A DNA stretch of 58,433 bases, filler included, from Sphacelaria rigidula (taxonomy: Eukaryota): assembly GCA_964200075.2 (NCBI GenBank). It is 4 parts of 4 records of this genome, joined end to end, with 100 filler letters (N's around TTAATTAATTAA, not from the genome) between each part and the next. Parts side by side here need not be neighbours in the genome. Positions count along the whole stretch, not along the records: positions 29,271 to 43,803 come from CAXNAA020002202.1; 3 more parts are not named here. One strand, given 5' to 3'. Within the stretch, counting starts at the first letter, position 1. Each line of letters begins with the position of its first letter. A model generated the notes under the pieces. That model made no database searches and was not told the origin of the DNA. It saw only the letters and a program-made list of their open reading frames with translations. The translations under genes were made by a program, and so were the position numbers. Of the stretch, positions 311 through 55,600 are shown one piece after another.

Positions 311-794
311 TGTACTCATGATCTTGTATGTCGTAGTCATAAGACCATCGACCTCGCATCCCTACAAAGCCGGGACGAAGCACGCCGGGTTTTCGCCGGA
401 CCGCTCGCACTCAAACCACCAAGCGCGAAGCGCCGTGCTGTGCTCGGCGAGTCGGATGAAGGGTGAGCTGCATCCTGCTAAGATTGTTCGGCCCGCAGCG
501 TACAGATCATCTTACGTATGGATGACAGCCTCCAATGAGTTGCTTTATTCTGTGGTATCGCCACTTCCAGAGACAGCCATGGGTTATACTGCCTCATAAG
601 TATCTCACCATATAAACACTATCTAGTATGATCATCCTCTGTGCGTGGAGTTCGGGTTCTCCACCTCGCACAATATGATCTAGCTCGACCACCATCATGG
701 TAACCAAATATGAAACGGAAGCGCGCAAAAAGACTGGCCGCATAGCTTGCGCAGTGAGGGGCGTGTTTCACAGCGTCGCTACCAACCGACGCCA
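311..794 (-). mobile_element. Unclassified repeat family A, long copy (strand inferred)
   Basis: Begins G-run + tgtactcatg and contains ccctacaaagccgggacg.agcacgccgggttttcgccggacc and aagcgcgaagcgccgtg. Collinear with nine other copies in the window. Confidence 0.85.
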
Positions 795-814
795 GTGCTA
801 CGGGGCGGGGGGAG

Positions 815-938
815 TGTACTCATGACCTTACATGCCGAAGTCATATGACCATTGACCACGCATCCCTACAAATCCGGGACGGGGCACGCCGGGTTTTGCC
901 GGACCAGGCTCACCATCAATCCTCAAGCGCGCAGCGTT
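815..938 (-). mobile_element. Family A, short truncated copy in tandem with the previous one
   Basis: Same tgtactcatg start after a G-tract; ends at ~938 followed by a G-tract. Confidence 0.85.
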
Positions 939-2361
939 CCAGGGGGGATGGGGGAGGGGGGAGCAAATGCTGTAAACCTCAAAATAAAAGGGCAGAGAAG
1001 AGGGGATGAGAATGAAGGAAATGGACATACATGAAGAAGAGGATCTTTCGGCTAATATTCAACACCAATTCCGAGAAAAACACTAGAGTCGTGCAATGTT
1101 GGAGGCGGGATGGGGGGAGCGAAAGAGCATTGGGTCACTCCTTCATCTGTAAACCTGACCAGGTGCGAAAAGTACGGCCATTTTTCTGTCACCCGGGAAG
1201 CGATTCGTCGACACCTGTCAAATCATTTGCCGGTAGATTTGGAGGGGCGGATGGTCGGGGGGGCGAGGGGGGAGGGGGTAACGAAGCGTTTTACAATGAA
1301 CTGTGACGATTTATAGGCAATCGATTAGACTACCGTACAGTCAGCGAATCGTCACAAACGTTAGTTGCTGGTTCGATCCCCGTCGGACGTACTCTTTTCG
1401 AAGAAAAGAGGGAAAAATCGTCACAGAACGGAATAAATACAGAGAATAGTTGCTCCTCTCCAGCCGTTGCAACTTTGCCGACGTCACTCCTCGAGATGAC
1501 TAGCAAAAAGTGAAAATAACGGGGGGAGGGGGGGACAATACGTCTCGACACGACAGGTTGCGGAAACTATTTGGTGTTGTCTTTTCTTAGAAGGGCTGCT
1601 AATTCCCCTCATCGCCCGTACTGTTATCGTATTCGTGGCACTCCTTGGATGCTGTACCTACCGAGTTACCACAAAGACTGAACTGTTCAAGATATAACGG
1701 GGGAAGATAGAGCATCCCCCATCGGTATCGTTTCCCGGCAAATAACGCATTTTTCTGCTGGTTTTCCTTTCTTGTTCATGTTGAACCCGAGTACCATCCA
1801 GCGAGGCTTTCCGTGTGTTTGTATTTGTGGATACCCATATTGTGATCACGACTATTTTCGTAGAGAAGGATTCATTGCCAGACGACCAGTCGAAATATCA
1901 GTTATTGGACGAATCAATCAACACAGACAAGATCCTTCCTGTGTTAAAACTATCCTGCTCCCACCCTCCTTTCTCTCACGTGCATTGAGTATTTGTGGAT
2001 CCCCGCCGCCCTTAGCTGCTTTTCCCCCAGAAAACCATGGTCCAGTCGCTAACTCGCGTTTCCTCCTTTCGTCCTGAACTGTGCCTGGATATCGTGAGGG
2101 CGTGCCTTGCTCCTCCCGGGCGCGATCATGATTTTTTTCCCGGACAGGAGACGACACGATTTCCACCTCTCTCGCTACACTATCCAGGAAGCACCCGAAG
2201 GAAACAGCGAGAACGTTGAAGATTGTCTCCGACAGCGTAAAACCCGCTAGCACAGCGATTTCATCGAGAGCACCTGGGGCGTGCACCGATCGGGGGCGGG
2301 GGCGGGGGAAGACCACGGAGATATTGATCCACCGACAGGGTGTCGACGGACAAAGGGAGGG

Positions 2362-2627
2362 TGTACTCATGGTCTTGCATGCCGTAGTCATTTGGCCGTT
2401 GACCTCGTACCCCTACAAAGCTGGCACGGAGTACGCCGGGTTTCCGCCGAACCAGGGGCGCAATCAATTACCGAGCGCGAGTCGCTGTGATGTGTTCGGC
2501 GAGTCGCATGAAGGGTAAGCTGCATCCTGCCAAGGTTGTTCGGCCCAAAGCGCACAATGCGTCTTGCATATGGATGTCAGCCTACAATAGGTTGCTTCAT
2601 TTTCGGTAACGCCACTTTCAGAGACAG
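2362..2627 (-). mobile_element. Family A, truncated copy
   Basis: Runs from gggaggg|tgtactcatg to gccactttcagagacag|ggg. Confidence 0.85.
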
Positions 2628-2859
2628 GGGGCATGAGAGGGACGCGGACATATTTCAAGCAAACCCAACTCAAACCATTTGTTTGGAATGCGTTTGACAG
2701 AAAACAACATTGATAGTTGACAATTTGTTTCCTCGCGACAATCCAGTATCACGGAATGCATGGTCTACGTAGGATGAATTGCTCATCTATGTCGTAATAT
2801 CAGGCTTCCGATGTGTTTCCTTTTCGAATCTTTGCAATGAACTAAGGATGGGGAGGGTC

Positions 2860-3170
2860 GCGCCTCGGTGGTGTAGTGGTTCGACTGCCACCATCAGGGT
2901 GGAGATGGTGTAGGTTCAATCCTTCATGCGTTGGGCTTTTTCTCCGAAGTATTTGATTCTCACCGTCAAAAGCGTGCGTACTTTAGTAAAAACAGAATAG
3001 TCCACCGAGTTTTGCTTGACGAGAGTTGACACGGTGCGGGAGTGCTGATAGTCATGATCCACGAGACCAAAGTGCAGGGCGTGTACCGGGGAGAGATGGG
3101 TTGATGATCCCTTGAGACAACAGGTTCATCCCGGGGAAGGAGAGGGGTTCCAAGAACGACAAAAATGAAA
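2860..3170 (+). mobile_element. tRNA-derived SINE, family 1
   Basis: A-box tggtgtagtgg, B-box ggttcaatcc, a ~230-bp body and an A-rich end. A collinear reverse copy lies at 24934-25260. Confidence 0.8.
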
Positions 3171-4219
3171 GACACAGGCGGGCACCGGCGTATCAACCGG
3201 GGGAATCCGAGAAGCATTAATAATAATGCATCTTTTGACGGCAGTATCTTAGAGTCGGCGTTGAAACAAACACCACGAAAAATCCAGGATGCTCTACGAA
3301 ATACTGCAAGAAAATGTTGCTGCTGTGAGAGATGCTGCTCTCGAGTGCTTTCATGTTAAGCTGCGTTGAGATCCCTGGCGCATATTCCACAAAACATCTA
3401 AAAAATGTACGCCGATCTACAACAGCCGAAACACCGAAATCCCCGGCCCCCTTTGCTGTACCACCCCGTAGTAGTACGTTGGCCAGAAGCGACCGGCGTT
3501 TTAACTACCAAGGCCCGGGACTTTCTCAAGAAATTTCACGTTATTCCGAACGTTGGGCATCAATAATTCCGAAGGCTGTCCTCGGTACTTCAACTGCGCC
3601 CAAATCGGATATCATCCATGGTTTCGCGCAAATGTGCAAAATTCAGCAAGCATAAACGACGGTACGGGTATGTTCTTGACTGTTTCGTACGGTTTCCTCA
3701 CCTGAAGCCCTGCGGCAGGGGCCTGTCGTCGTTCTATCTCCGCAGGAACGGTGATAGATATGAGGCAATCATTACTTTTTGTTTCTCCTTCCCCTTCGTC
3801 CTTCCCTTCCTGTTCATATCGTATATTCTCTCTTCTCCTTCTCTTCTCCAGATTGCCTCATTTGTTTTCCACATTCAATCTCGTTTTTCCTCATTGTCGG
3901 ATTTCCTTCCTTAAGCAAGTGTTTCCGTGTTTTTTCTTTGAGTATGCCCATCTTGTGACCAAGGGTGGGGTACAAGCGGATCAACTACTGTTTGATAGGT
4001 CAATCGACTCAAGACTAATGCCGGGACAGCCCCCCTACAGAAGGCGCACCGGAGACCGTCCGACAAACCGACTGCGATCTCACTATTGGGCTTGTTTGCA
4101 GCAATTTCGCCCACATGGGAGGCGTGTAGCAGTTCGAAATCAGCTATAACGCCTACAAAAGTCGCGTCGTGCAACACGAAACCAGCTCTAACGGCATTTA
4201 TGATCATCGCCCCCGTGCA

Positions 4220-32389: not shown

Positions 32390-32623
32390 CTTATTCCGTT
32401 GCCCGATAGCCCGGAGCTTCTGCTTGTCGATACGAGCAGCATTTTCGTGCAATACCTCCACGATGTGATGCACCGAACTATTAAAGTCCTTTATCTTACT
32501 TACGAACCCCCGACATTCTTCCTCGAGCGTTTCCGAGTGCTTGAACTGCTCGGGGTCGAGGACACGAATGCGACACTCGTCGTCAAACGATATTTGGACG
32601 CCACCTGCATCTTCATTCATCAT
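32390..32623 (-). CDS. IFT20: Intraflagellar transport protein 20, first exon
   Basis: MMNEDAGGVQISFDDECRIRVLDPEQFKHSETLEEECRGFVSKIKDFNSSVHHIVEVLHENAARIDKQKLRAIGQRNK followed by a GT donor. FDD..IRVLDP and KLRAIG.RN are IFT20 hallmarks. The 3' exon(s) were not located. Confidence 0.92.
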
Positions 32624-32976: not shown

Positions 32977-35900
32977 ATGCGAGCTGAAGTCGAAATTATC
33001 GCTCCGTCGCATGAATCTCGGCGCAAAAGCTCCTTGCTAGCCAAACAGGTGCTCGCGGCTATTAGGGAGACGGACGATGAGGCTTTCGACGACGTCCTCC
33101 GGTTCGATTTCGTGGCGCTTGGTGGTGGTGTTGCTGCCGGATACTGGGCCAAGGTGTGCGTGGTGGTGCGAAAGCGGCTACAGATAGCACCACGTTGGAT
33201 CTAGCACGTACATCCAACGCCACGTAATGTACTCGTCATCATTGCAGCGCTTCAAAGCAACACTGTGCCGTACTCATGTTAAGTGCTGTAGTATCGGTCG
33301 CTTAGAGGCAAACGCAGCTGGATACACAAATAAATACAGGCGCAGCTGCTCCTCCCCGTACAATCAGAGTGATCTGTTATGTGTTTTGGCTGTTAGCATG
33401 ATGAACCCAAGGTTGGTTTGGGCGCGAAAACATGCGAGTCAACTTCGCAAAAACATGACGAGGTGGACACGTGGGTGACGGTCGTCGTCGCTTTGGAACA
33501 GTATTCAATGAAACAGCAGTATGAACGCCGTCTTGACCCTTTTGGAACCGTTGATGGAAAAATGACGATTTTACAATTGATGTTTTCTTGAGCAAGGTAT
33601 GGTTGTTTTTCTGCAATTTTTAATGATGCAGCCCACCAAAACGGTGCATCACTCTAAGGTCAAGTACACAAATGTGACAGACTCTTGCACCGAACTCGAA
33701 GTGGCGTTTTTTCCGGCGACGAAAGCTCGCATGTGGGAGTTTGTGCTGTTTTCGTGAGTTCCAAAAATGGTTAACTTCGGTGGTCCAACCTGCTGTCTCT
33801 GGCAACACGCAAACAGACTATCGCAGAATCTCTATGTGGGGGAGGAGGTACAGCCGCAATCGTCAGCGGCGATCCCGCAGGCCTCGTTCCGTTCGAAAGG
33901 TAACCCGAGACAGAGACCTCGACTCTCGCCTTACCGTCTTCGAAGACCATGGTGATTGACAACGCTCTCGCAGATGTCACCTACACTACAGTAAATGGGC
34001 CAGCACGAATGACATTCGAAAACTATTACGTAGGAGGTGGCGAGTCAACAGTGATCGTTTGCACTGCTTTTGAAAATATAGTGGTAACCTAGCTGGTCGA
34101 AGTTCATACCGCCTTGACAACATGCAGCAGGTAGATGTATCATCTACGTCTTCGTACGATATTATACCACTTACTTTATCACCCCTCCCCTACAGAAACA
34201 GAATGCTGCTGCAGACAACTCGCTCCATCATCAACCAGAATGAGTTCATCATAAATGAGTCCAGTACCATCCTCAAACCGGCCGTGTCAATAAGATTCGC
34301 GTGAGTCCTAGCCTTTTGTGTATGTTGATGACTTTTGGTAGGCTAGGTGCGCATACGTATCACTAGCCCCCCCCTCCCCCCCTCTCTTCTACCCCCCGCA
34401 CCCTCTCCCCCACTCGTGCTGTGACGTGTAGACCAGCCCTATCAAAGGACTGCCTAAATCCACATTTATCCGGTTTCCGTGACTTCTCAGCCAAATCTCC
34501 AGACTTCCCGTTCGTGTGTTTGGGATCTGGCGGCGAATCCCAACCGCCGCAATGGTACCAGGATAAGGTACCTACCGAAGTGCCGTGCCAGAAGTGTTGT
34601 CGTTGATACCAGCGTAACATCGAGCTTTGATCGAATGCGTGACAACGATTCCTTATTTCGCTCAGTGGTGGGGGTCCAGCGAATTAAAGCCTCTCTTACA
34701 TTGTCGTGTGACACCTCAAGATATCTTGTTTGTTCACGGTGCTTTGCTCTATTGATGTCGAGCACAGGGCATCGCAATCTTGTCGGAATGCCAAGCGGTT
34801 TCCGTCGATCTGGAGAAGAAACACATCAAGGTCAGGCGCATCAGATCGGGTAGCATGACAACGTTGGAGTTCAGCGAAACGATCAAAGTGAGACATGATC
34901 TACTTCTATCATGTAATTGCGACCAGTCAGTATGATACATGCAGGAATAGGGTATAACATTTCGCCACCGCTGACATCGCGGCTAAATCCAAGGCTTCTT
35001 CCTGTGCTCCTTGTTGGTTTTTACCACCTTGGTTAGATCTACGATGCGCTAGAGTACACGAGCCTCGCACATTGACATGCAAGGAGATGAATCTACGACA
35101 CCTGCCGCGAGTGAAAAAAACACTTGGCGTACCCGATTTCCACGCAGAACCTATGCCGTATGCATTCCCTGTCGTGCTTTTGTGTTATGTTCGTGTTTAG
35201 GTGGAGTATGGCCGGTTGTTGATTGTCACGGGAGTGCGAGCTCGACGTATTGCCGACAGCACCCATAAAGACATCGCGAGGGCACTACAGGTGATCTCCT
35301 CGAATTATGAATCGACGACGATTGAAACACTGGAACTCCTGCGGTGGTTGCTATACATATTTAAATCTGCAACATGATAACTTGGGACTTCCATGAGTTT
35401 CAGGAGGCAGAACATCACGCCCGTGGCTGTTGAGTATGGTATTCAGCAGTCTGGCTTGTCTTCTCACGAGAATGTTCGCGTAGTCCCCTCCCCAGACTCC
35501 GAGCCTATATAGATAAACGCCCATTGGTATACTTTTGCGTTCTGTCAGCTTTGATACCACAGCTCCAAGCCATGACTCCTATACGGTGTCCTGCCGTTCT
35601 CTGTTGATGTCCCGTTTCATCACAGGCCAGCTGCTCTTGCTCTCGACATCCAGACCTCACCGGGTGTCCGTTATCACTTGCAGCTCCTGAGCGATTTGGC
35701 TTCGGATCTGTGCACCATCTGCGAGATCTAGGAGATACATTGAAGCTGCTGCAGGCAATGAAAAGGGTGGAGGCTGACGGGCAAGTGAGGGACTGGGTAG
35801 TAGCTGTCATGGTGTAGAGGATGATCGAACTGCGTCATGCGTCAAACATTTAATCGGCCTTGCTCTATTCGTGTTGAGTTCACCAATAGGAAGTCCGCGG

Positions 35901-38900
35901 CAAAGAAGAAAAATACATGATCACAAGTCGACCTCGTGGACGGGTATCGCTGTTTTGTTGGCGGAGTAGAAGAGCACGTCCATGTTAGATCCTCGAGTGG
36001 GGATGACGCTCGTCACAGCATCGTCAACTTACCACTACGAGATGGTTGGTATATCATTCATACGGGCATACTAAATGGCCAGAAGAGATTACTTGACATT
36101 GGTGATACGAAGAAACTTTGAGAACATTGGTCGGTGTAAACTTTTACTGGGGGGTCTTGAGAGGTAATTTGGTGCACTAGCGAATTTGGTTCGAAACTGC
36201 AATGTAACATAAACTTTCCCATATCTGACTGTCGACCACAACATGATAGGACACGTGCAAGCACCCAGCCGTTCTAATCGGCGGCGGTGTGATAACCTGG
36301 GAGGTGGCTGCCGCCATTGTTGTACATTACCCGGACATGCCGTTGGTCATGATCATGGCCGGTGAAACAGTTTTGGAGCAAACTGGCTTCGGTCCGGAGA
36401 TCTGTCAGTTCTACGAAAGGCGATTGGCACGGGTAAGGAGCGCATACGTGGTGGGTAGGACGCTGTAACAAAGATGAGCTGCTACGTGAGGTAGCGACAG
36501 GTCTTCGTAAATCCGGAGGGCGGCAGGTGGCGAGAAACTTGTCAGTGAATTGACCATCAAATAGTGCGGTTCCCTCTTAATTATTTCTCGGCGTTTTACA
36601 TATGCGGGTATTTTCTAAGACGTGAAACATACACTCTGTGGATATACATACTTCGAAGTATATCGTACCTCGACCGAAAGGAAAATCCACCCCAAGTGTC
36701 TTCACCGCTGTCTTGCTTTGCATGGATTTGTCACCTCCCGAATCACCCCTGAAAATGGAAGTCTGGTGTGGGGTTTGCAAAGGGGTATGCCGTGACTCGT
36801 CTGTGGCCCATAGAGGAGGAGGGATGTTTTCCGACGCTGGAGCGTTCCTCCGAGGGACTGAGTCTCAAGAAAACGCTTCCCCGGACTTTCGGCGCAGCTG
36901 ATCCACATTTTACCGAATGTCGTGGAGTCGTACTTTCGAACGTGCGTACCGGCGAGGAGGTGAGACCTGAGATGACTATCACAAGCGAAAATTTAGCGGG
37001 GCGTTATGCGAAAATGCCCTGCGAAATCATCTTCGGGGGCTGCTCGCGATAGACACGACTTTCGACTAGCAGACCCGTTACAGCTTGTGGTGTGGTGGTG
37101 GGCAGCTTGCCAATTTCTGTGCAGAAAACGTTTGTAAAATAAGACCATGGTGGCTATAACCCAGCTCGTCGCATGCACTAATGAGAATAAATATGCTATG
37201 GTGGGTGCAGATGGGGTAGCGATGCAATACTTTGGAGTAGAGACCATGCTGACGATAGCGATGGTGCGGTTTTCATGCGTAGTGCACGTGTCGCATCACC
37301 ATCTCCGCGCGATGTTGTTTTCCTCTTGCGTGTTATCCCATGCGACGGATCTTCGTAGTAGGCCATGAGGTGTCCGTAGGTGGCGTCAAGTAGTTCCTTG
37401 ACCGGTAGCTGCTAGAGTCAAACCCGCTGGTTTATGCAATCTGTCTGTTTTCGGGTAGCACACACTACTCACGCGGCAACCGAATCAAGCACACGGACTT
37501 ACTGCCCTCGAATCTCTCGTTTCGATGTGGATACCTTGCACTACTGTATGTATGTACTTGAATAAATACCAAAGCTAGATCTGGCTAGCGTGCCGCTACG
37601 TCGTAGCAGGCATTGGAACCATTCCGAATTCCGAGCTATTCAAGGGATCGCTCGAACTCTCTCGAGATGGTGGCATCATCACGGATTCCTGCCTGCGTAC
37701 CAGTCATCCCTCCGGGGATGTTTTTGCCGCGGGAGACGTGGCATGCGTTCCCGTTCCTCTCACAGGCGACAGCGAAGGAGGTTTCCCTGCCACTACCGCC
37801 AGATACGAGCATGTTTGGGCGGCGCAGGAGATGGGCGCTCATGCGGCGAGAGCGATGCTGGGTGCTGCTGGGGGGCAGCAACCATACGATCCTGTGCCGT
37901 ACATGTACTCCAGGTCAGATCTCTGGGATCAGGAGCAAGTCGTGCCTGCTTGACTTGTTTGCGGTGTGCTTTGGAGACGGGCAAGGGTGGAGGGTGACGT
38001 CCCGCCCTAGATCTTCGCACGTACTCAGCTGCGAGATGTACAGCAAGAAACCATCCTGACAGTGGATCTCACGACCGACCACCGTGACGTCACGGTCCAT
38101 GGAGTGCGATGGGGCTGGTATTGCCTGCCCGGATGGTACAGAAACAAAGCATGTGCTGATGCGCTTCCAAGTACAATGAATATACGATACCGTTATCTCC
38201 ATAAGTTCAAGGCTTGCTTCACAGCGCGAAGGCCACAATACAAAGTCAGGATTCTGCTCGAGATATCTCTCTCCCCGAATCGCACGCACTGCTGGTTATC
38301 CAAGCAAACTGCGAGTGCTCGAACAATCCTTCTTTTTTTCTACTGACATATGGTCGTGCTATTCCGCTGCAAGCGGTGTTCTGCTGTGCTCGTTTGTCCC
38401 CGCTGCTATGCCGGGTGTGCGTTTGTTGTTCTGCCGAGTTTACCGACCCTAGTATCCGATGCTTGTTCTGGCAGCTTCTTGGAGATGTCCTGGAAGTTTT
38501 ATGGATTCACAAGAGGGGAGATCTGCGTTTTGGGTATGGAGGCATTTCCCACCACGAGAACGTTCGGGGCATTTTGGGTGTCAGCCGGGAGAATCGTCGG
38601 TGCATTCCTCGAGGTGTGGTACGACCAATAAATCAGCAGAGGGGGGAATGGTCAAGCGACCAGCGATCAAAAGCGGGCAGGTGTTATTCGTTCATACAGA
38701 GACAGCGCACCGTGGTGCTAACACAGTAACACCTGCCTGCCTCACTCACGCCACGACCAAGCGATCACGCAAAGGCCAATATGACGAGGGATGCAGTATT
38801 TAGACGACTTGGGTCCTCCCGGGGTATTGATCACTTCATTAAGTTTGGAAAAATTCATCGTTTTGTTGTGCGATCACTCATCAGTTGATTTTAGAGTAGG

Positions 38901-41313
38901 GGAAGTCATACACAACTCCATGGCTATATATCCCTCTCCGTAGCACAAACGAAAACCAACCCGTTCAATATACCAACACCAGCTGGGAAACCAGATTTGC
39001 GGAGAGTACACGATGACTGCAATACGCAGCAACGACAGAGTTTGCCACTTCTTAGGCCCAATATTATCGACACTGTTTTTCCGGAGACCACCGAAAATTT
39101 AGGAAGTAGATGATTCGCGAAAGCTTGTGAGCGCCACGGCGTACGCACAGGGCAGCTCTCCGAATTGTTGGGTTGCAATCCTGAATACCTAGACTTGTTC
39201 CAAAATGGGGGTTCGGAGAAAAAATCACGCTGCTTCATTTTTGGAGAAGCTCGAACGCAGAGTCCGACATGTCTGAAAAACTCAGAGATCTCCGAATAAA
39301 CGGTGTCGATAATAATGGGCCTTACTACCCCATCCAGTCGCGTGGCTGACGGCAGCGTAATCAGGGACACGAGCCGCCAGTAATCATCACACACAAGCTG
39401 GGCCAAACATGGATTCGGCAGCGGTGTATCTCCCCGTAGATATACTGGCTGTGCTGTACGGTACTGTACGGTGCTGTACGGTGTGTACTATACGATACGC
39501 TCGTTGTTGACTTGACTCACGAGCACCTTGTCAAGAAGCGTCGTTGCTGCCCTGACCTCGAGCTGGGAGTCACGTTTGTCGGTCACAGGCTTAGATACAG
39601 ATGGGTGTATGAAGATATGTACTCTCGGCTGCGCGGTGCCATTCCATCTCATGTCGTGTCGCGTCGTGCCGTGGTCTACTACTGCACTGTACTGCTGTCG
39701 TATTGGCAGCCGCCGATCTGGGACGAATGCATGGACTGCACGGTTTTGAGTCATGCATGCTCGATTTCGATAATATTCACCATTCCCGACACTCATGACT
39801 AGCCAGAAAAGCGGACTATGGTTGTTAGTAAGTCTGGGGCCCGAAAGAGTTACGGCGCCTCATACGCAGTGCAGTTTACTCAACGGATGGCCACATCGAC
39901 AGCATCACGAATCCAATTGTAACACCGTAGTCCTGGCTGAGAAAGTGTAAGGCACGACTGGCCCACAACTCTTGTACGTCGTTTTCCACAAAGTCGTGTT
40001 GCGTCCCTCACGTGGTTTTGGCTACTACAACTCGGTCACACTGTACGCATGCTGTTTAACTTGCGCAATAACTTCGGGGCACTCCAAAACGCGAATAACG
40101 TGTACCAGCGGCCACCCGTGCCCGTGTAACAATCATGATCCGATCAAACATTATCTCAGAGCTATTATTCCGCGTGAGATACGACTGCTTCTTCGATGCA
40201 CCGAGTTGTAAACGGTAGCAATTGCTGGTGTTCGGACTCCACACGGCGTTCGCTCGGACTCACTTCGCATGGCATGATTTTCTTGGCTCTGCATGTCACC
40301 ACCTTGACCTTGTGTACCTTGTGTACTACACACCGAACTTCCTCGGCGAGAACAGGAAGACCCATCATCTGGAGTTGATCACACGGCGACACTGGAATGC
40401 ATAGCAAGGGAGCGACCGCGAGTGTTAAACATCAAATGCTTGCGCAAGGTATTTGATACGTTTGCTCGTCCTGCGACTGACCTGTTCAGGCCAGGCGGTC
40501 CACGTGGGGTTTTGAAACGTATGTAGATTTCGGGTGGTAGAGCCGAACTTTAGCACAATGAAATTTTGACGGGATATTTTGAGCTGTACTTTACATGTCC
40601 TTTCAGATGTCTTGGGATTGTATTTCCTGCCGTGCTTTCGGAACTTTACCCTGTAGAGCTATTAACCCAGGGTGCGCGCGCTTGTTCCACACTAACGCTG
40701 ACCTCAACTGCTGCTTGACCGGATGAACTCGGCGTCCCACCACAGTGCCCTCTGGAGCGGCTTCTTGCCGATCCTCGTTGCTTGGAGCCCCCGCCTATAG
40801 GCGTTGGCGAATTTCACGCCGATACCGACGAAACCAGCATTGATGAGGCCTTCCGCAAATATGCAGGAGCGAGCCATAAGGTTGAATGAGCCACCATATT
40901 ATGGCGCTGACGTCGAATGCTGTTAGTTACAAATGAACGAAGTAATGCCGGGATCGTTCAGAGAGCCAGACAACGGGGCCAGCGACCCAGTTTGACGGGG
41001 GCGGAAAGACCAGTACAATTGTGGTGTAGAACGGTAGGGTGCTAGACCTCAAAAACACATCTGAGGACATGCTCTTGTACTCGGTACTCGAAGCGCCACA
41101 TACTTCGTGGGGTGAATTCTTCGGAGTACAGCTTATCTCGTTCCAATGGACACGCTCAACCGGCAGGTGAAGAGGGAAGACATGGCCGCCGTTATGCAGG
41201 AGCTCGGAGCAGACTGGGATGCAGATGAGCTGGCCGATGCACTCGAGGCCCTGGACCCCTCTGACTCGGGTGCTGTGCACTTCTCGGACTTCGTGTCGTG
41301 GTGGTCCAATTGA
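32977..41313 (+). CDS. MDHAR: Monodehydroascorbate reductase-like FAD/NAD(P)H oxidoreductase with C-terminal EF-hand pair
   Basis: Thirteen phase-consistent exons: 32977-33153, 33817-33899, 34432-34567, 34768-34830, 35201-35290, 35626-35784, 36250-36432, 36762-36959, 37579-37913, 38475-38613, 40356-40448, 40746-40880, 41167-41313. Motifs: FVALGGGVAAGY, PFERPALSK, VCLGSGGE..PQWY, LLIVTG, HLRDLGD, LIGGGVITWE, VFAAGDVA, RYEHV, YDPVPYMYS, SWKFYG, FGAFWV..IVGAFLE, then IDEAFRKY..LDPSDSGAVHFSDFVSWW*. Confidence 0.88.
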
Positions 41314-52659: not shown

Positions 52660-55600
52660 GTTGCGTGCAGGGGAGCTCAAATTGGGGACCTATGACGTCC
52701 ATACACTGTCCCTCACAGATAAGAGCGGCGTTGGTCAGGCCATTCTGGGAAAGTGTCAAGCGGTGGGATGTGACGCCATCGGATTGCAGGACTAAAGAGA
52801 GCGGGTGCAACCGAGTTCGTTGCCACGGGATATCGTGTCTTCTGCTGCGGGCCGGAAGGTGGCATGGCAAGGGAAGGGTTGGACAGAATGGGGTCGAGTT
52901 GGCGGTCAAGGAGTCGATAATCAAGGAGACGACGCGGACTCAGGCACTCATCAGCGAAGGCATTTTGTCGATGGCCTTCAACCTCGCAGGCAAATCGAAC
53001 GCTTTCGCATTTGTGGTTGGGTATGCCGCTACAGACACCTCAAAGTCAAGAGAAGAGAAAAAAAGCATGTTCCGAACTGAGTTCGAGAGCATTGTAAACC
53101 GATTCCCGACAAACAACACGCGTTTATTTTCATAGACGCTCTCGCTAGGACTGTCGTGAGAACGGGCGAAGAGGACTGTAACATAGCGGGGGGCATTCGA
53201 CCCGGACTCCTGAACCAACGACAGCAACCGCACCTCTTTTGCTACAATCTGCGGGTGACAACAGGCTTGGCCTGGCCAACACGTTTTTCTACCCCCAAGT
53301 GACGCACGTCTCGTACGTTCAACGGTATTGCGAATCGTCCCGCGGACAACAAACGCATTGAGTACATCCTCACACGGCAAGATTGTCGTAGGCTTCTTGG
53401 CGGTTGTCACCGTCCACCTTCACCCACCCCACACTACTCTGACCACAATATCGTATGCGCTTCGGTGCGACCCGTTGGGCGCTTTGCACGCAACAGACCT
53501 CGGCGTATCCAAATGCCGACCGATTCACAGGCGGGCAGTAATATATCCGACACCGACAGACGTTGGCAACTCACCCAGTTCATCGTCAGCGAGCTCAAGC
53601 AGGGTAGAACTGGCGATGCGGTCAGTGCACTGGCGGTCAACTTTACCAGCGTACCTCTGAGCTCCGCTGAGCAGTTAGTGCCCAGTCACATCTGATTGCC
53701 TCGTATACCGGGGTGGTTCGACGATGTTGCCATCCGAACGGAGTTCGAACAGGCCTGAAATGAGAGGAAAAGGGCCAGGTCGACGGTGCGACTGGGACCG
53801 AGAGAAAAACCCGCATGGCGTGTATCACGAGTAGCGTGCGGGAAACTCAAAGAGGTGACCCAAACTGGGGTGGACAGGTACCTGGAGGTATACGCGAAGG
53901 AACTGAAGGAGTATTTTAGGATTGGAGACATGAGAGGATTATATCGATATGATGTTCGTGGTGCGCCGACGACGGGAAACAATGTTTTCGTGAGATTGAG
54001 AGTAGAGGATACTATTGAGAGTGAAGAGTGGTCAGTTAGTGAATGAATCGCTCCAGTCTCGAAATGCTCCTCCACGAGGCCCGATATGCTTTCTGTAGTA
54101 GCTTTCTACTGAGGCCCTTACTATCTTTGAGGAGGATATCGACGCGTAGCTGTAAGCATACGCCACTGATGGAGGCAAAGAAAAGCACACGCGGGATGCA
54201 AAAATGGCTAACTTAAAGGGAGTGGTCAAAACCACTCTCAATCAGCGCTCTACTCTCAATCCCACGAAAACGTTGTTGGGAGTGGGGACGAACGAGCAAC
54301 CTCCCACTAACCATGTGCTTCATCGACCTGCAGAAAGCCTACGATTCCGTGGACCGCACGCTCGGTGGGGAGTGCTTGCCCTCTTCAGAGTCCCGCCGCG
54401 AAAGAACATAATTATCTGTAAGTTTCACGACAGCATGAGAACTCGAGTACAGCTGGATTATTACAGATCGTCAGAATGGTTCCACGTCTGCCGGGGACTC
54501 AGACGAGGATGTGCTTCGTCCTCGCTGTTGTTCAATATCTTCGGCGCAGCCGTGGTCGACGAGATCTTACAGCAGTTCGCGACAGACCCAGTCATCGCCT
54601 CACACCTGGTATATGTAGATGATGTGCCAACAGGTCACGGTAGTAAACCCCCGAGATGAGGTGCCGCTGGAGAAGGTGCGGTGCGCTGTGCGGGGAATGC
54701 TATACGCCGATGACGCTGGCATAGTCTTCAGGTTCCCAAAGATGCTTGCTAGAAAATTATGGCCGCGGTCGTGGTGGACTGTAAGGAGTTCGGATTTACG
54801 GTATCGGAAGGTAAGGCAGAGTTCACGTGCCTGTGGCCAATACCCAGTTCCGCAGAGACCGCCCTGCACATCAGCGCGGGAGGTCGGCGGTATAAGCAGA
54901 AGGCAGAAGGCAGATTTTGTCTGCCTCGGTGGTGATGTCAGCACGGATGCAAAATGTTTTCGTCGAAATCAACCGCTGCGTCAGCGCTGCGTGGGCTCGC
55001 CTCTGAAAGCGTAGTTTCCAACTCTACGATCGACACAACGCCCAGTAATCTCTGAGGATCCGGCTACGCAAAGCGGAGGTGGTGGAAGCCATGCTATACA
55101 GATGTTCTACATGGACGCTGCGTTTTGACGACTCCACGAGTCTGCGCATTGCACGCCACGAGATTTCGCTGCAAGTGGGATGGATTCCGCAGGAAGGAGC
55201 GAATTGCTTTCGTAGAGAGATGTGCTCGAGATGGTGAACTGCAAACGTATCGAGGCGCCCACCTGCCAGTGTCAACTCTTATCGTGGGGGCCTTTGTACG
55301 GTAGGACGAAATAGTCTTCCGAAACGCATCATGCGCGGACGGCTAGCCGTACAAGGACCCACGGAGGCTGGCCACCCCCCCAAACACTGGGGGACAACCT
55401 CGAGGAGACCCACGTGTACTAGGGGCTTTTCCACGCGAAGGAGCACGACGGAAGTGGTTCGTCTACGGTGTGGAGATTAATAACGCACACGATGGGGTCG
55501 CTGCGGCAGAGGACATGGGAAAATGGCGTCTTGGGGTCGAGAACGAGGCGGAAGAGTTCGAGGACACGTGGCGACGCGAAGACAGACAACAATCGGACCT

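Follow-up and report, generated by a model that had tools for sequence, protein, structure and literature searches.

A monodehydroascorbate reductase-family gene of the brown alga Sphacelaria rigidula encodes a C-terminal calmodulin-like EF-hand pair found across ochrophytes

In the present work, we analyse a gene in a stretch of 58,433 nucleotides from the brown alga Sphacelaria rigidula (GenBank assembly GCA_964200075.2), called the window below, which consists of four parts of four records joined end to end. The gene lies in the part taken from CAXNAA020002202.1, and it encodes a reductase of the monodehydroascorbate reductase (MDHAR, EC 1.6.5.4) family that continues, directly after the reductase fold, into a tail of 94 residues composed of a conserved 31-residue proline-rich linker and a 62-residue EF-hand pair. 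We will show that the exons of the tail are the true 3′ end of the MDHAR-family gene and not a separate gene, the decisive evidence for this being comparative, and that the fusion, as judged from its distribution, is old and shared among photosynthetic stramenopiles (ochrophytes). The interpretation that we favour, and consider reasonably probable, is that of one MDHAR-type reductase with a linker and a calmodulin-like lobe, fused long ago in the ochrophytes, the role of the lobe probably being independent of Ca2+.

The gene is located on the plus strand (32977-41313), and its model was obtained by tblastn guidance with refinement of the splice sites. As the guide, the Ectocarpus fasciculatus protein P0008 was used, which gives 13 collinear segments on the same strand (33007-41310). 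The resulting 13 exons comprise 1995 nt and 664 codons without any internal stop, all 12 introns have GT-AG ends, and the locus is intron-rich and eukaryotic, with ca 50% G+C. The last three exons are all in phase 0, with AG before each and GT after each except the last. They translate to EDPSS...LECIARERPRVLNIKCLRK (40356-40448), CPLERL...IDEAFRKYAGASHK (40746-40880) and VKREDMAAVMQELGADWDADELADALEALDPSDSGAVHFSDFVSWWSN, followed by the stop codon (41167-41313). The coordinates and translations given for these exons in the initial annotation of this DNA agree with ours letter for letter, and its proposal that the last two continue an MDHAR-like protein is borne out, as the 13-exon frame is open and the same tail is present in the orthologues.

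A search with exon 9 gave 88 proteins at E <= 1e-5 among 1801 candidates, and the top eight are orthologues with 56-71% identity. Six of these are named brown-algal models, from Laminaria digitata, Scytosiphon promiscuus, Ectocarpus fasciculatus, Hapterophycus canaliculatus, Discosporangium mesarthrocarpum and Nemacystus decipiens (eukprot), and the remaining two are fragments. The same tail ends five of the six long brown-algal models, the sixth (Discosporangium) being a partial model that stops just short of it. When the tail of P0008 alone was used, six proteins were obtained among 102 candidates, namely five brown-algal models and P0092, a metagenomic protein of 1012 residues. A word-index search with the last exon alone yielded 48 candidates, none of which scored; this can be regarded as a sensitivity miss, since the later searches found the orthologues. 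In the searches made, the fusion protein is the sole MDHAR-type match from brown algae.

The fusion extends well beyond this group. Profile A1, which was built from six tails, was compared with 1.84 billion representatives and matched many further clusters, each with a single full-length tail match at the C-terminus. MDHAR3-like_C and/or Pyr_redox_2 are found upstream of the tail in 15 of the 17 tail-bearing representatives that were scanned, and the other two are fragments starting in or just after the MDHAR C-terminal domain. Named members bearing the tail are Pelagophyceae sp. CCMP2097, Aureococcus anophagefferens, Chattonella subsalsa, Fibrocapsa japonica, Triparma laevis, Parmales sp., Octactis speculum and Chrysoparadoxa australica. 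The Chattonella protein (P0156, 639 aa) is a record labelled 'type:complete' in a transcriptome collection, from which the Octactis protein (P0127) also comes. A metagenome scan with the tail alignment gave 8 loci, and a scan with P0092 as the query found no relative. At the metagenomic locus L006, a relative of P0092, a single uninterrupted open reading frame (ORF; 723..3788, 1021 codons) ends in the tail, which means that the fusion there requires no splicing assumption. Relatives combining Pyr_redox and EF-hand domains, for which a search had been recommended from the start, are thus found in brown algae and in other ochrophytes.

Direct evidence for splicing at the locus is more limited. 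None of the eight listed sets of sequencing data is recorded as RNA; three low-depth runs that cover introns as well as exons, X1-X3, are guessed to be so. The GT..AG joints in the contigs of X1-X3 fall at exactly three of the predicted introns, 34887>35201 (in X1 and X3), 37913>38475 (in X1) and 40880>41167. The last of these is the intron between the two EF exons, and its joint is seen in one X1 contig with a depth of 2 and a shorter side of 26 letters. No joint 38613>40356 or 40448>40746 occurs among the X1-X3 contigs, and an X2 contig (40354-40630) is unspliced across the donor of exon 11. Of the junction series 38613-40356-40746-41167 that the initial annotation had put forward for checking, the last step is therefore seen and the first two are not, and the RNA support for the tail at this locus is weak, coming from one intron only.

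These data could be taken to indicate an artefact, with the EF exons belonging to another gene further downstream, or being spurious frames, and the true end of the protein lying near 40448-40527. In its favour are the absence of both upstream joints and the X2 contig, which, on passing the donor of exon 11, would give a stop near 40527. We consider this to be extremely improbable. Little weight can be given to the unspliced X2 contig, because other introns are covered equally in these runs. The first Met in the tail exons comes no earlier than the middle of exon 13, so that no separate protein of any size could be encoded there. The tail is, moreover, 73-80% identical to those of the orthologues, and an identical architecture is present in transcript-derived ORFs and in the uninterrupted genomic ORF. 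On these grounds, both the separate-gene and the spurious-ORF explanations were rejected.

The reductase part can be assigned with the help of Pfam and of solved structures. Exon 9 matches Pyr_redox_2 (PF07992) with 40.6 bits against a cut-off of 26.1, and exon 10 alone matches MDHAR3-like_C (PF21791) with 46.2 bits against a cut-off of 27. In the orthologues, MDHAR3-like_C and Pyr_redox_2 reach 59-72 and 76-105 bits, respectively, above the cut-offs. In the comparison of the orthologue P0008 with the PDB, five plant MDHAR sequences are found at E values of 4e-43 to 3.5e-42, and the next family (3lxd) follows at 8.5e-11. By these matches, the closest solved relatives of the enzyme part are MDHARs, ahead of ferredoxin or rubredoxin reductases, in line with the original assignment as an MDHAR-like reductase.

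The motifs expected for this family are intact in the window: LGGGVAAG and IGGGVITWE (the GxGxxG pair), FAAGDVA (the GD motif) and FVCLGSGGE, the MDHAR-unique 63-80 loop, the role of which is described for rice MDHAR in passages of PMC5031999. An equivalent of Tyr349, catalytic in the rice structure according to the same passages, is also present, as PYMYSS of the window aligns to PHMYSR of P0008, which itself aligns to PYFYSR of the plant enzymes. The substrate-binding Arg320, on the other hand, is not kept in the window, which has Gln instead (EHVWAAQEMG), although Arg is found at this position in all seven other brown-algal models. Relative to the plant MDHAR chain there are two conserved insertions, at ca 145-220 and 317-376 of P0008. 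The second reads RLW..EE.G.FPTLE...PR.FG and contains residues that are invariant across ochrophytes.

Outside the brown algae the catalytic features are less constant. Tyr349 is replaced in some members, by Q in P0092, T in P0169, H in P0132 and S in P0131, and the GxGxxG and GD motifs are lost in P0092, P0160 and P0169; these scattered losses were read from named lineages and not from a tree. Every member that has lost Tyr349 or the dinucleotide motifs retains the tail. A metagenomic clade without introns (L001-L007, P0092, P0128) contains huge low-complexity inserts (poly-N, poly-G, poly-A) and has lost the catalytic Tyr as well as the GD and N-terminal FAD motifs, the tail still being 57% identical to that of the window. 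This clade may be a pseudoenzyme.

Losses of this kind raise the option that the protein has moved away from the reduction of monodehydroascorbate (MDHA), either to serve as a scaffold or sensor without redox activity or to reduce another substrate, such that the main function would lie in the tail, with the reductase fold as its platform. The two insertions absent from plant MDHAR would agree with such a shift, and so would the Gln of the window, as the R320A variant of the rice enzyme has 20% activity left in the account given in parts of PMC5031999. We nevertheless regard this option as very unlikely. In the window, the two dinucleotide motifs and the GD motif are intact, as are the MDHAR-specific loop and Tyr349, the other brown-algal models all have the Arg, and the best solved relatives are by far genuine MDHARs. 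The enzyme part is thus, by its sequence, a member of the MDHAR family in which one defining residue, Arg320, is replaced in the window, and the reduction of MDHA is its predicted activity.

Turning to the tail, profile A1 matches calmodulins of the PDB at E values of 2.9e-15 to 1e-13 (55-59 bits), and 291 distinct PDB sequences match it at E <= 0.01. The alignment to residues 77-144 of calmodulin is nearly gapless, including the DTD-EE..AF lead-in, and the N-lobe is matched too. The tail was also modelled with AlphaFold2 (AF2) from an alignment of six sequences, and this predicted structure has a mean predicted local distance difference test score (pLDDT) of 71.6, with ca 80 over the EF pair and ca 48 over the first 20 residues. 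Its topology of helices (H) and strands (E) is H-E-H-H-E-H (H30-41, E46-48, H49-59, H65-75, E82-84, H85-93). With Foldseek, the model gives target-normalised template-modelling (TM) scores of 0.72-0.86 to isolated calmodulin N-lobe chains. With VIA-align, the Z scores are 12.1 for 8q06 (by its title, the MINDY3 EF-hand bound to a ubiquitin-like domain, UBL), 12.0 and 11.5 for calmodulin N-lobes, and ca 10 for apo-calmodulin entries, apo and closed forms of calmodulin being among the matches. A search of the ESM Atlas with the tail gave scores of 0.80-0.81 to EF-hand clusters, which are below the level deemed meaningful and serve as leads only.

The Pfam EF-hand models, by comparison, stay below their cut-offs (28-30 bits). 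The last exon scores 19.3 bits against 30, the orthologues score 15.0-20.3 bits with no match in P0007, and none of the 17 tail-bearing representatives reaches the cut-off, the best being P0133 with 24.3 bits. As a consequence of these sub-threshold scores, no EF-hand appears in precomputed domain lists, and the architecture is hidden from routine annotation. The tail is thus a calmodulin-type EF-hand pair by profile and predicted structure, as the initial annotation had it, though not by the Pfam threshold.

A central question is whether this pair can bind Ca2+. The EF loops were mapped on the alignment of A1 to calmodulin, and their ligands were surveyed over 27 tails. The EF1 loop AGASHK|VKRED is divided by the last intron and has 11 residues, which is one short, and positions 1, 3 and 5 in brown algae are A, a gap and S or N, with no acidic residue. 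The EF2 loop of the window, DPSDSGAVHFSD, has D, S, S and D at positions 1, 3, 5 and 12, together with Gly at 6, Val at 8 and His at 9. The early description of the first loop as shortened and degenerate was accordingly correct. The pattern D-x-[DNS]-x-[DNS]...[DE] is present at EF2 in 5 of the 27 tails, those of the window, two Ectocarpus, Nemacystus and Hapterophycus, which corresponds to five of the seven brown-algal tails and none of the 20 others. The other two brown-algal loops are those of Scytosiphon, with Ala at position 12, and Laminaria, with Lys at position 3. One of A, T, V, Q, N, H or S occupies position 12 in 20 of the 22 tails without the ligand pattern. A PROSITE-type EF-hand pattern fits only the two Ectocarpus EF2 loops, and the window fails it through the His at position 9.

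The tail is under stronger constraint than the core. In a 15-sequence alignment, 18 of its 94 columns are invariant, compared to 25 of 562 in the core. The identity of the window to the six orthologues is 73-80% in the tail and 62-67% in the core, and the tail is the more similar part in all seven comparisons having a tail, that with P0092 included (57% vs 34%). Within the tail, the majority fraction over 20-residue segments is about 0.65-0.70 in the linker, among the highest in the protein, and 0.74 for LGADWDEDELEDALRALDPS (the LGADWD...LDPS segment), as compared to 0.47 for the segment with the EF1 loop and 0.58 for that with the EF2 loop and the C-terminus. All 27 tails have a negative net charge, of -5 to -18, that of the window being -13.

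One way to interpret the tail is as a working Ca2+ sensor, in which binding at EF2 shifts the conformation, tunes the reduction of MDHA and thereby ties ascorbate recycling to Ca2+ signalling. The homology to calmodulin lobes is clear, the EF2 loop of the window offers oxygen ligands at 1, 3, 5 and 12 in addition to Gly 6 and Val 8, the pattern recurs in most brown-algal tails with the two Ectocarpus loops fitting the PROSITE-type pattern, and a precedent is provided by the plant external NADPH dehydrogenase NDB1, which has an EF-hand and Ca2+ regulation according to passages of PMC4587368. Against this, EF1 cannot bind, being one residue short and having no acidic ligand at 1, 3 or 5, and EF2 of the window has only two carboxylates, with Asp rather than Glu at 12 and His at 9. 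The substitutions in Scytosiphon and Laminaria and the lack of the ligand set in 20 of 20 non-brown-algal tails point in the same direction, and as weak evidence the AF2 model resembles apo or closed lobes. Furthermore, the loops are the less conserved parts of the tail. Ca2+ sensors usually show the opposite, with well conserved loops. A sensor of this type is therefore possible but, in our estimation, rather unlikely.

A related scenario, to which we give slightly less credence, would restrict the metal to brown algae. Here EF2 (D-x-S-x-S-G-x-V-x-x-x-D) would be a low-affinity Ca2+/Mg2+ site, and the metal would move the acidic lobe off or onto the basic face of the active site, thus gating ascorbate recycling. 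Ca2+ transients are reported alongside oxidative stress responses. If the scenario is true, such transients would directly gate ascorbate recycling, by an enzyme-embedded Ca2+ switch that is unknown in plant MDHARs. The brown-algal EF2 may at most be one weak Ca2+/Mg2+ site. The interpretation given in the initial annotation is consequently supported in part: the MDHAR-family reductase and the EF-hand pair in one protein are borne out, and Ca2+-regulated ascorbate recycling is not supported. The EF2 ligand set occurs in 5 of 27 tails only, conservation is lower in the loops than in the linker and the helix between the EF-hands, and the window enzyme has Gln at the Arg320 position.

In the interpretation that we favour, the conserved job of the tail is probably independent of Ca2+, because the family lacks Ca2+ ligands throughout at EF1 and in most lineages at EF2, and near-invariant residues are instead found in the linker, the LGADWD turn and the F..WW motif. 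The tail would be a strongly acidic docking or lid module, or a protein-interaction module, tethered to the C-terminal domain of the reductase, the surface to which small acidic redox partners attach in homologous reductases, and adjoining the basic substrate pocket. On its proline-rich tether, the acidic lobe could sit on the face of this domain as a lid or pseudo-partner, or it could recruit another protein. According to passages of PMC5031999, the small redox-protein partners of Pdr, BphA4 and RdxR bind the reductase C-terminal domain, and the active site and substrate pocket of rice MDHAR are strongly basic. With partners binding there in homologues and a basic pocket in rice, an acidic tethered lobe would be well placed at this location. 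The linker, near-invariant and predicted to be disordered without the core, would fit a segment that packs on the core.

Several points weigh against this interpretation. The docking of the tail on the core is purely inferred. Acidity is a general trait of calmodulin-like domains and is alone no sign of docking on a basic pocket. The retention of D, S, S and D in the window, two Ectocarpus, Nemacystus and Hapterophycus could possibly reflect a functional brown-algal site. The brown-algal gene models may come from one annotation pipeline and might then not be independent, and at the locus itself the joints 38613>40356 and 40448>40746 are missing from the contigs of X1-X3.

The features of the gene are collected in Table 1.

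Table 1. Exons and functional segments of the MDHAR-family gene, in window coordinates.
Feature	Position	Strand	Evidence or remarks
Exon 1: start codon and N-terminal FAD-binding motif LGGGVAAG	32977..33153	+	P0008 tblastn, gene model, motif table
Exon 2	33817..33899	+	P0008 tblastn, in-frame AG/GT ends
Exon 3: MDHAR-specific active-site loop FVCLGSGGE	34432..34567	+	P0008 loop aligns to plant HVCVGSGGE
Exon 4	34768..34887	+	tblastn, gene model, GT..AG joint 34887>35201 (X1, X3)
Exon 5	35201..35290	+	tblastn, gene model, contig joint at start
Exon 6: subfamily-specific insertion 1, Cys-rich SCSCSRHPD ... RFGFGSVHH	35626..35784	+	Not in aligned plant MDHAR
Exon 7: NAD(P)H-binding motif IGGGVITWE	36250..36432	+	Pfam, tblastn, gene model, motif table
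Exon 8: subfamily-specific insertion 2, RLWPIEEEGCFPTLE...PRTFG	36762..36959	+	W, G, R, F columns invariant in alignment A3
Exon 9: end of Pyr_redox_2	37579..37913	+	Pfam 2.8e-10; GT..AG joint to 38475 (X1)
Exon 9 codon: Gln (rice Arg320 position)	37825-37827		
Exon 9 codon: Tyr (catalytic Tyr349 position)	37906-37908		
Exon 10: MDHAR3-like C-terminal domain	38475..38613	+	Pfam PF21791 5.3e-12, 46.2 bits vs cut-off 27
Exon 11: last MDHAR-homologous segment EDPSS...LECIARERPRVLNIKCLRK	40356..40448	+	Plant MDHARs end ~6 residues beyond equivalent point
Exon 12, first part: Pro-rich acidic linker CPLERLLADPRCLEPPPIGVGEFHADTDETS	40746..40838	+	Conserved; pLDDT ~48 when folded without core
Exon 12, rest: EF1 entering helix IDEAFRKY and first half of degenerate EF1 loop AGASHK	40839..40880	+	Aligned to calmodulin I85-G98
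Exon 13, first part: rest of EF1 loop VKRED, exiting helix, invariant LGADWD turn, EF2 entering helix	41167..41253	+	
EF2 loop DPSDSGAVHFSD	41254..41289	+	Aligned to calmodulin D129-E140; D, S, S, D at 1, 3, 5, 12; His at 9
EF2 exiting helix with invariant F..WW, then stop codon (41311-41313)	41290..41313	+	

Some observations were also made on the surroundings of the gene. Upstream, on the minus strand, an open frame at 32060-32749 matches IFT20 of the intraflagellar transport complex B (Pfam 2.2e-24). The two genes stand head to head, with 353 bp between the likely ATG of the IFT20 frame, near 32623, and the ATG of the MDHAR-like gene at 32977, and a bidirectional promoter may serve both. 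Nothing recognisable was found in the ca 2 kb downstream of the stop codon of the MDHAR-like gene. Within the gene, a joint 34809>35468 with CT..AC ends, corresponding to GT..AG on the minus strand, is present in X1, X2 and X3 (region 34418-37910), and on the contigs bearing it the plus-strand exons 6-8 are read through without splicing. The pattern resembles that of an antisense transcript, itself spliced, which overlaps exons 4-8.

Two of the introns contain repeats. In intron 1, the summed depth of the X5 contigs rises from ca 67-71 to ca 20,000 over 33531-33752, where many contigs break and their loose ends differ, which points to a dispersed repeat that is short and present in very high copy number; within the segment itself, no repeat structure was detected. 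In intron 10, inverted-repeat arms of 41 nt (39054-39094 and 39282-39322, 83% complementary) surround ca 190 bp. The depth over 39054-39322 is raised (441-897) and one X5 contig skips 39080>39304, so that this looks like an element resembling a miniature inverted-repeat transposable element (MITE), polymorphic or present in multiple copies. Elsewhere in the window, an open frame on the minus strand at 18359-18781 matches zf-Nse, the MIZ-type zinc finger of the Nse2/Mms21 SUMO ligase (Pfam 1e-09, 38.5 bits vs 27). A weak, sub-threshold RVT_1 match on the plus strand at 54156-54656 (E 8.5e-05, 22.8 bits vs 29.6), in the G+C-richer right part of the window, is possibly a retroelement remnant.

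In general, MDHAR is regarded as a simple recycling enzyme of the ascorbate-glutathione cycle that is not regulated, and the plant reviews mention no regulatory domain. Full-text literature searches, the scope of which excludes subscription-only papers, found no paper describing an MDHAR with an EF-hand. A 2026 review of MDHAR (PMC13571949) does not contain the term 'EF-hand', PMC7730656 has it once, in the section on NOX enzymes, and the MDHAR passages of PMC4396506 do not mention it. This is in keeping with the plant MDHAR chains of the PDB, which end ca 6 residues past the start of the tail, and with the view, held from the outset, that plant MDHARs lack EF-hands. Public databases already contain the proteins discussed here, where some bear the automatic name 'monodehydroascorbate reductase (NADH)' and some of the tail fragments that of 'Ca2+-binding EF-hand superfamily protein'. 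A whole branch of MDHARs in brown algae, raphidophytes, pelagophytes, dictyochophytes and bolidophytes has a domain derived from calmodulin whose conservation exceeds that of the catalytic core. As the tail escapes the Pfam thresholds, it will have been overlooked in domain-based surveys of the reactive oxygen species networks or Ca2+ toolkits of these algae, which are ecologically dominant. Be it a Ca2+ switch or a Ca2+-independent docking module, the tail offers a testable handle on how stramenopiles control ascorbate recycling.

It is instructive to compare the protein with known systems. With plant MDHARs (rice OsMDHAR, 5JCI/5JCK; Pennisetum, 7BQ6) it shares the three-domain FAD/NAD/C-terminal fold family, the GxGxxG motifs, the 63-80 loop and Tyr349. 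It differs from them in the linker and EF-hand tail, the plant chains stopping shortly past the junction, in the two extra conserved insertions and the Gln at Arg320, and in its end, WWSN, with no terminal peroxisomal targeting signal type 1 (PTS1) or membrane anchor. Compared to a calmodulin lobe (Pfam PF13499 clan), the tail aligns residue for residue with residues 77-144, with the DTD-EE lead-in, hydrophobic core and LG turn all matched, and its model is predicted as two helix-loop-helix units with short beta bridges (Z 10-12). Unlike calmodulin, it has a ligand-less EF1 that is one residue short, Ser, Ser and Asp at EF2 in place of Asp, Asp and Glu, and Ala, Trp and Trp in place of M124, M144 and M145, and it is a single lobe fused to an enzyme, scoring 15-24 bits in Pfam against cut-offs of 28-30.

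Other enzymes with EF-hands are related in concept. NDB1, of the NDH-2 type, belongs to the same Pyr_redox_2-type flavoprotein superfamily, and its EF-hand is an internal insertion with a Ca2+-binding loop. A built-in EF-hand and Ca2+-dependent activity are described for NDB1 in PMC4587368. It represents another subfamily (quinone-reducing NDH-2), while the best solved relatives of the window protein are MDHARs, and it is treated here as an analogue only. The best structural match, with Z 12.1, is the EF-hand of MINDY3 (8q06, by its title a complex with a UBL domain), but the catalytic domain of MINDY3 is unrelated and the likeness is one of fold only. The CPK-related kinases (CRK) are described as having only degenerate EF-hands and an activation that is likely Ca2+-independent. 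They resemble the present protein in being enzymes with degenerate EF-hands and differ in having an unrelated catalytic domain, so that the relation is one of analogy. The tail of the ochrophyte reductase adds another case in which an enzyme has reused a degenerate EF-hand as an appendage.

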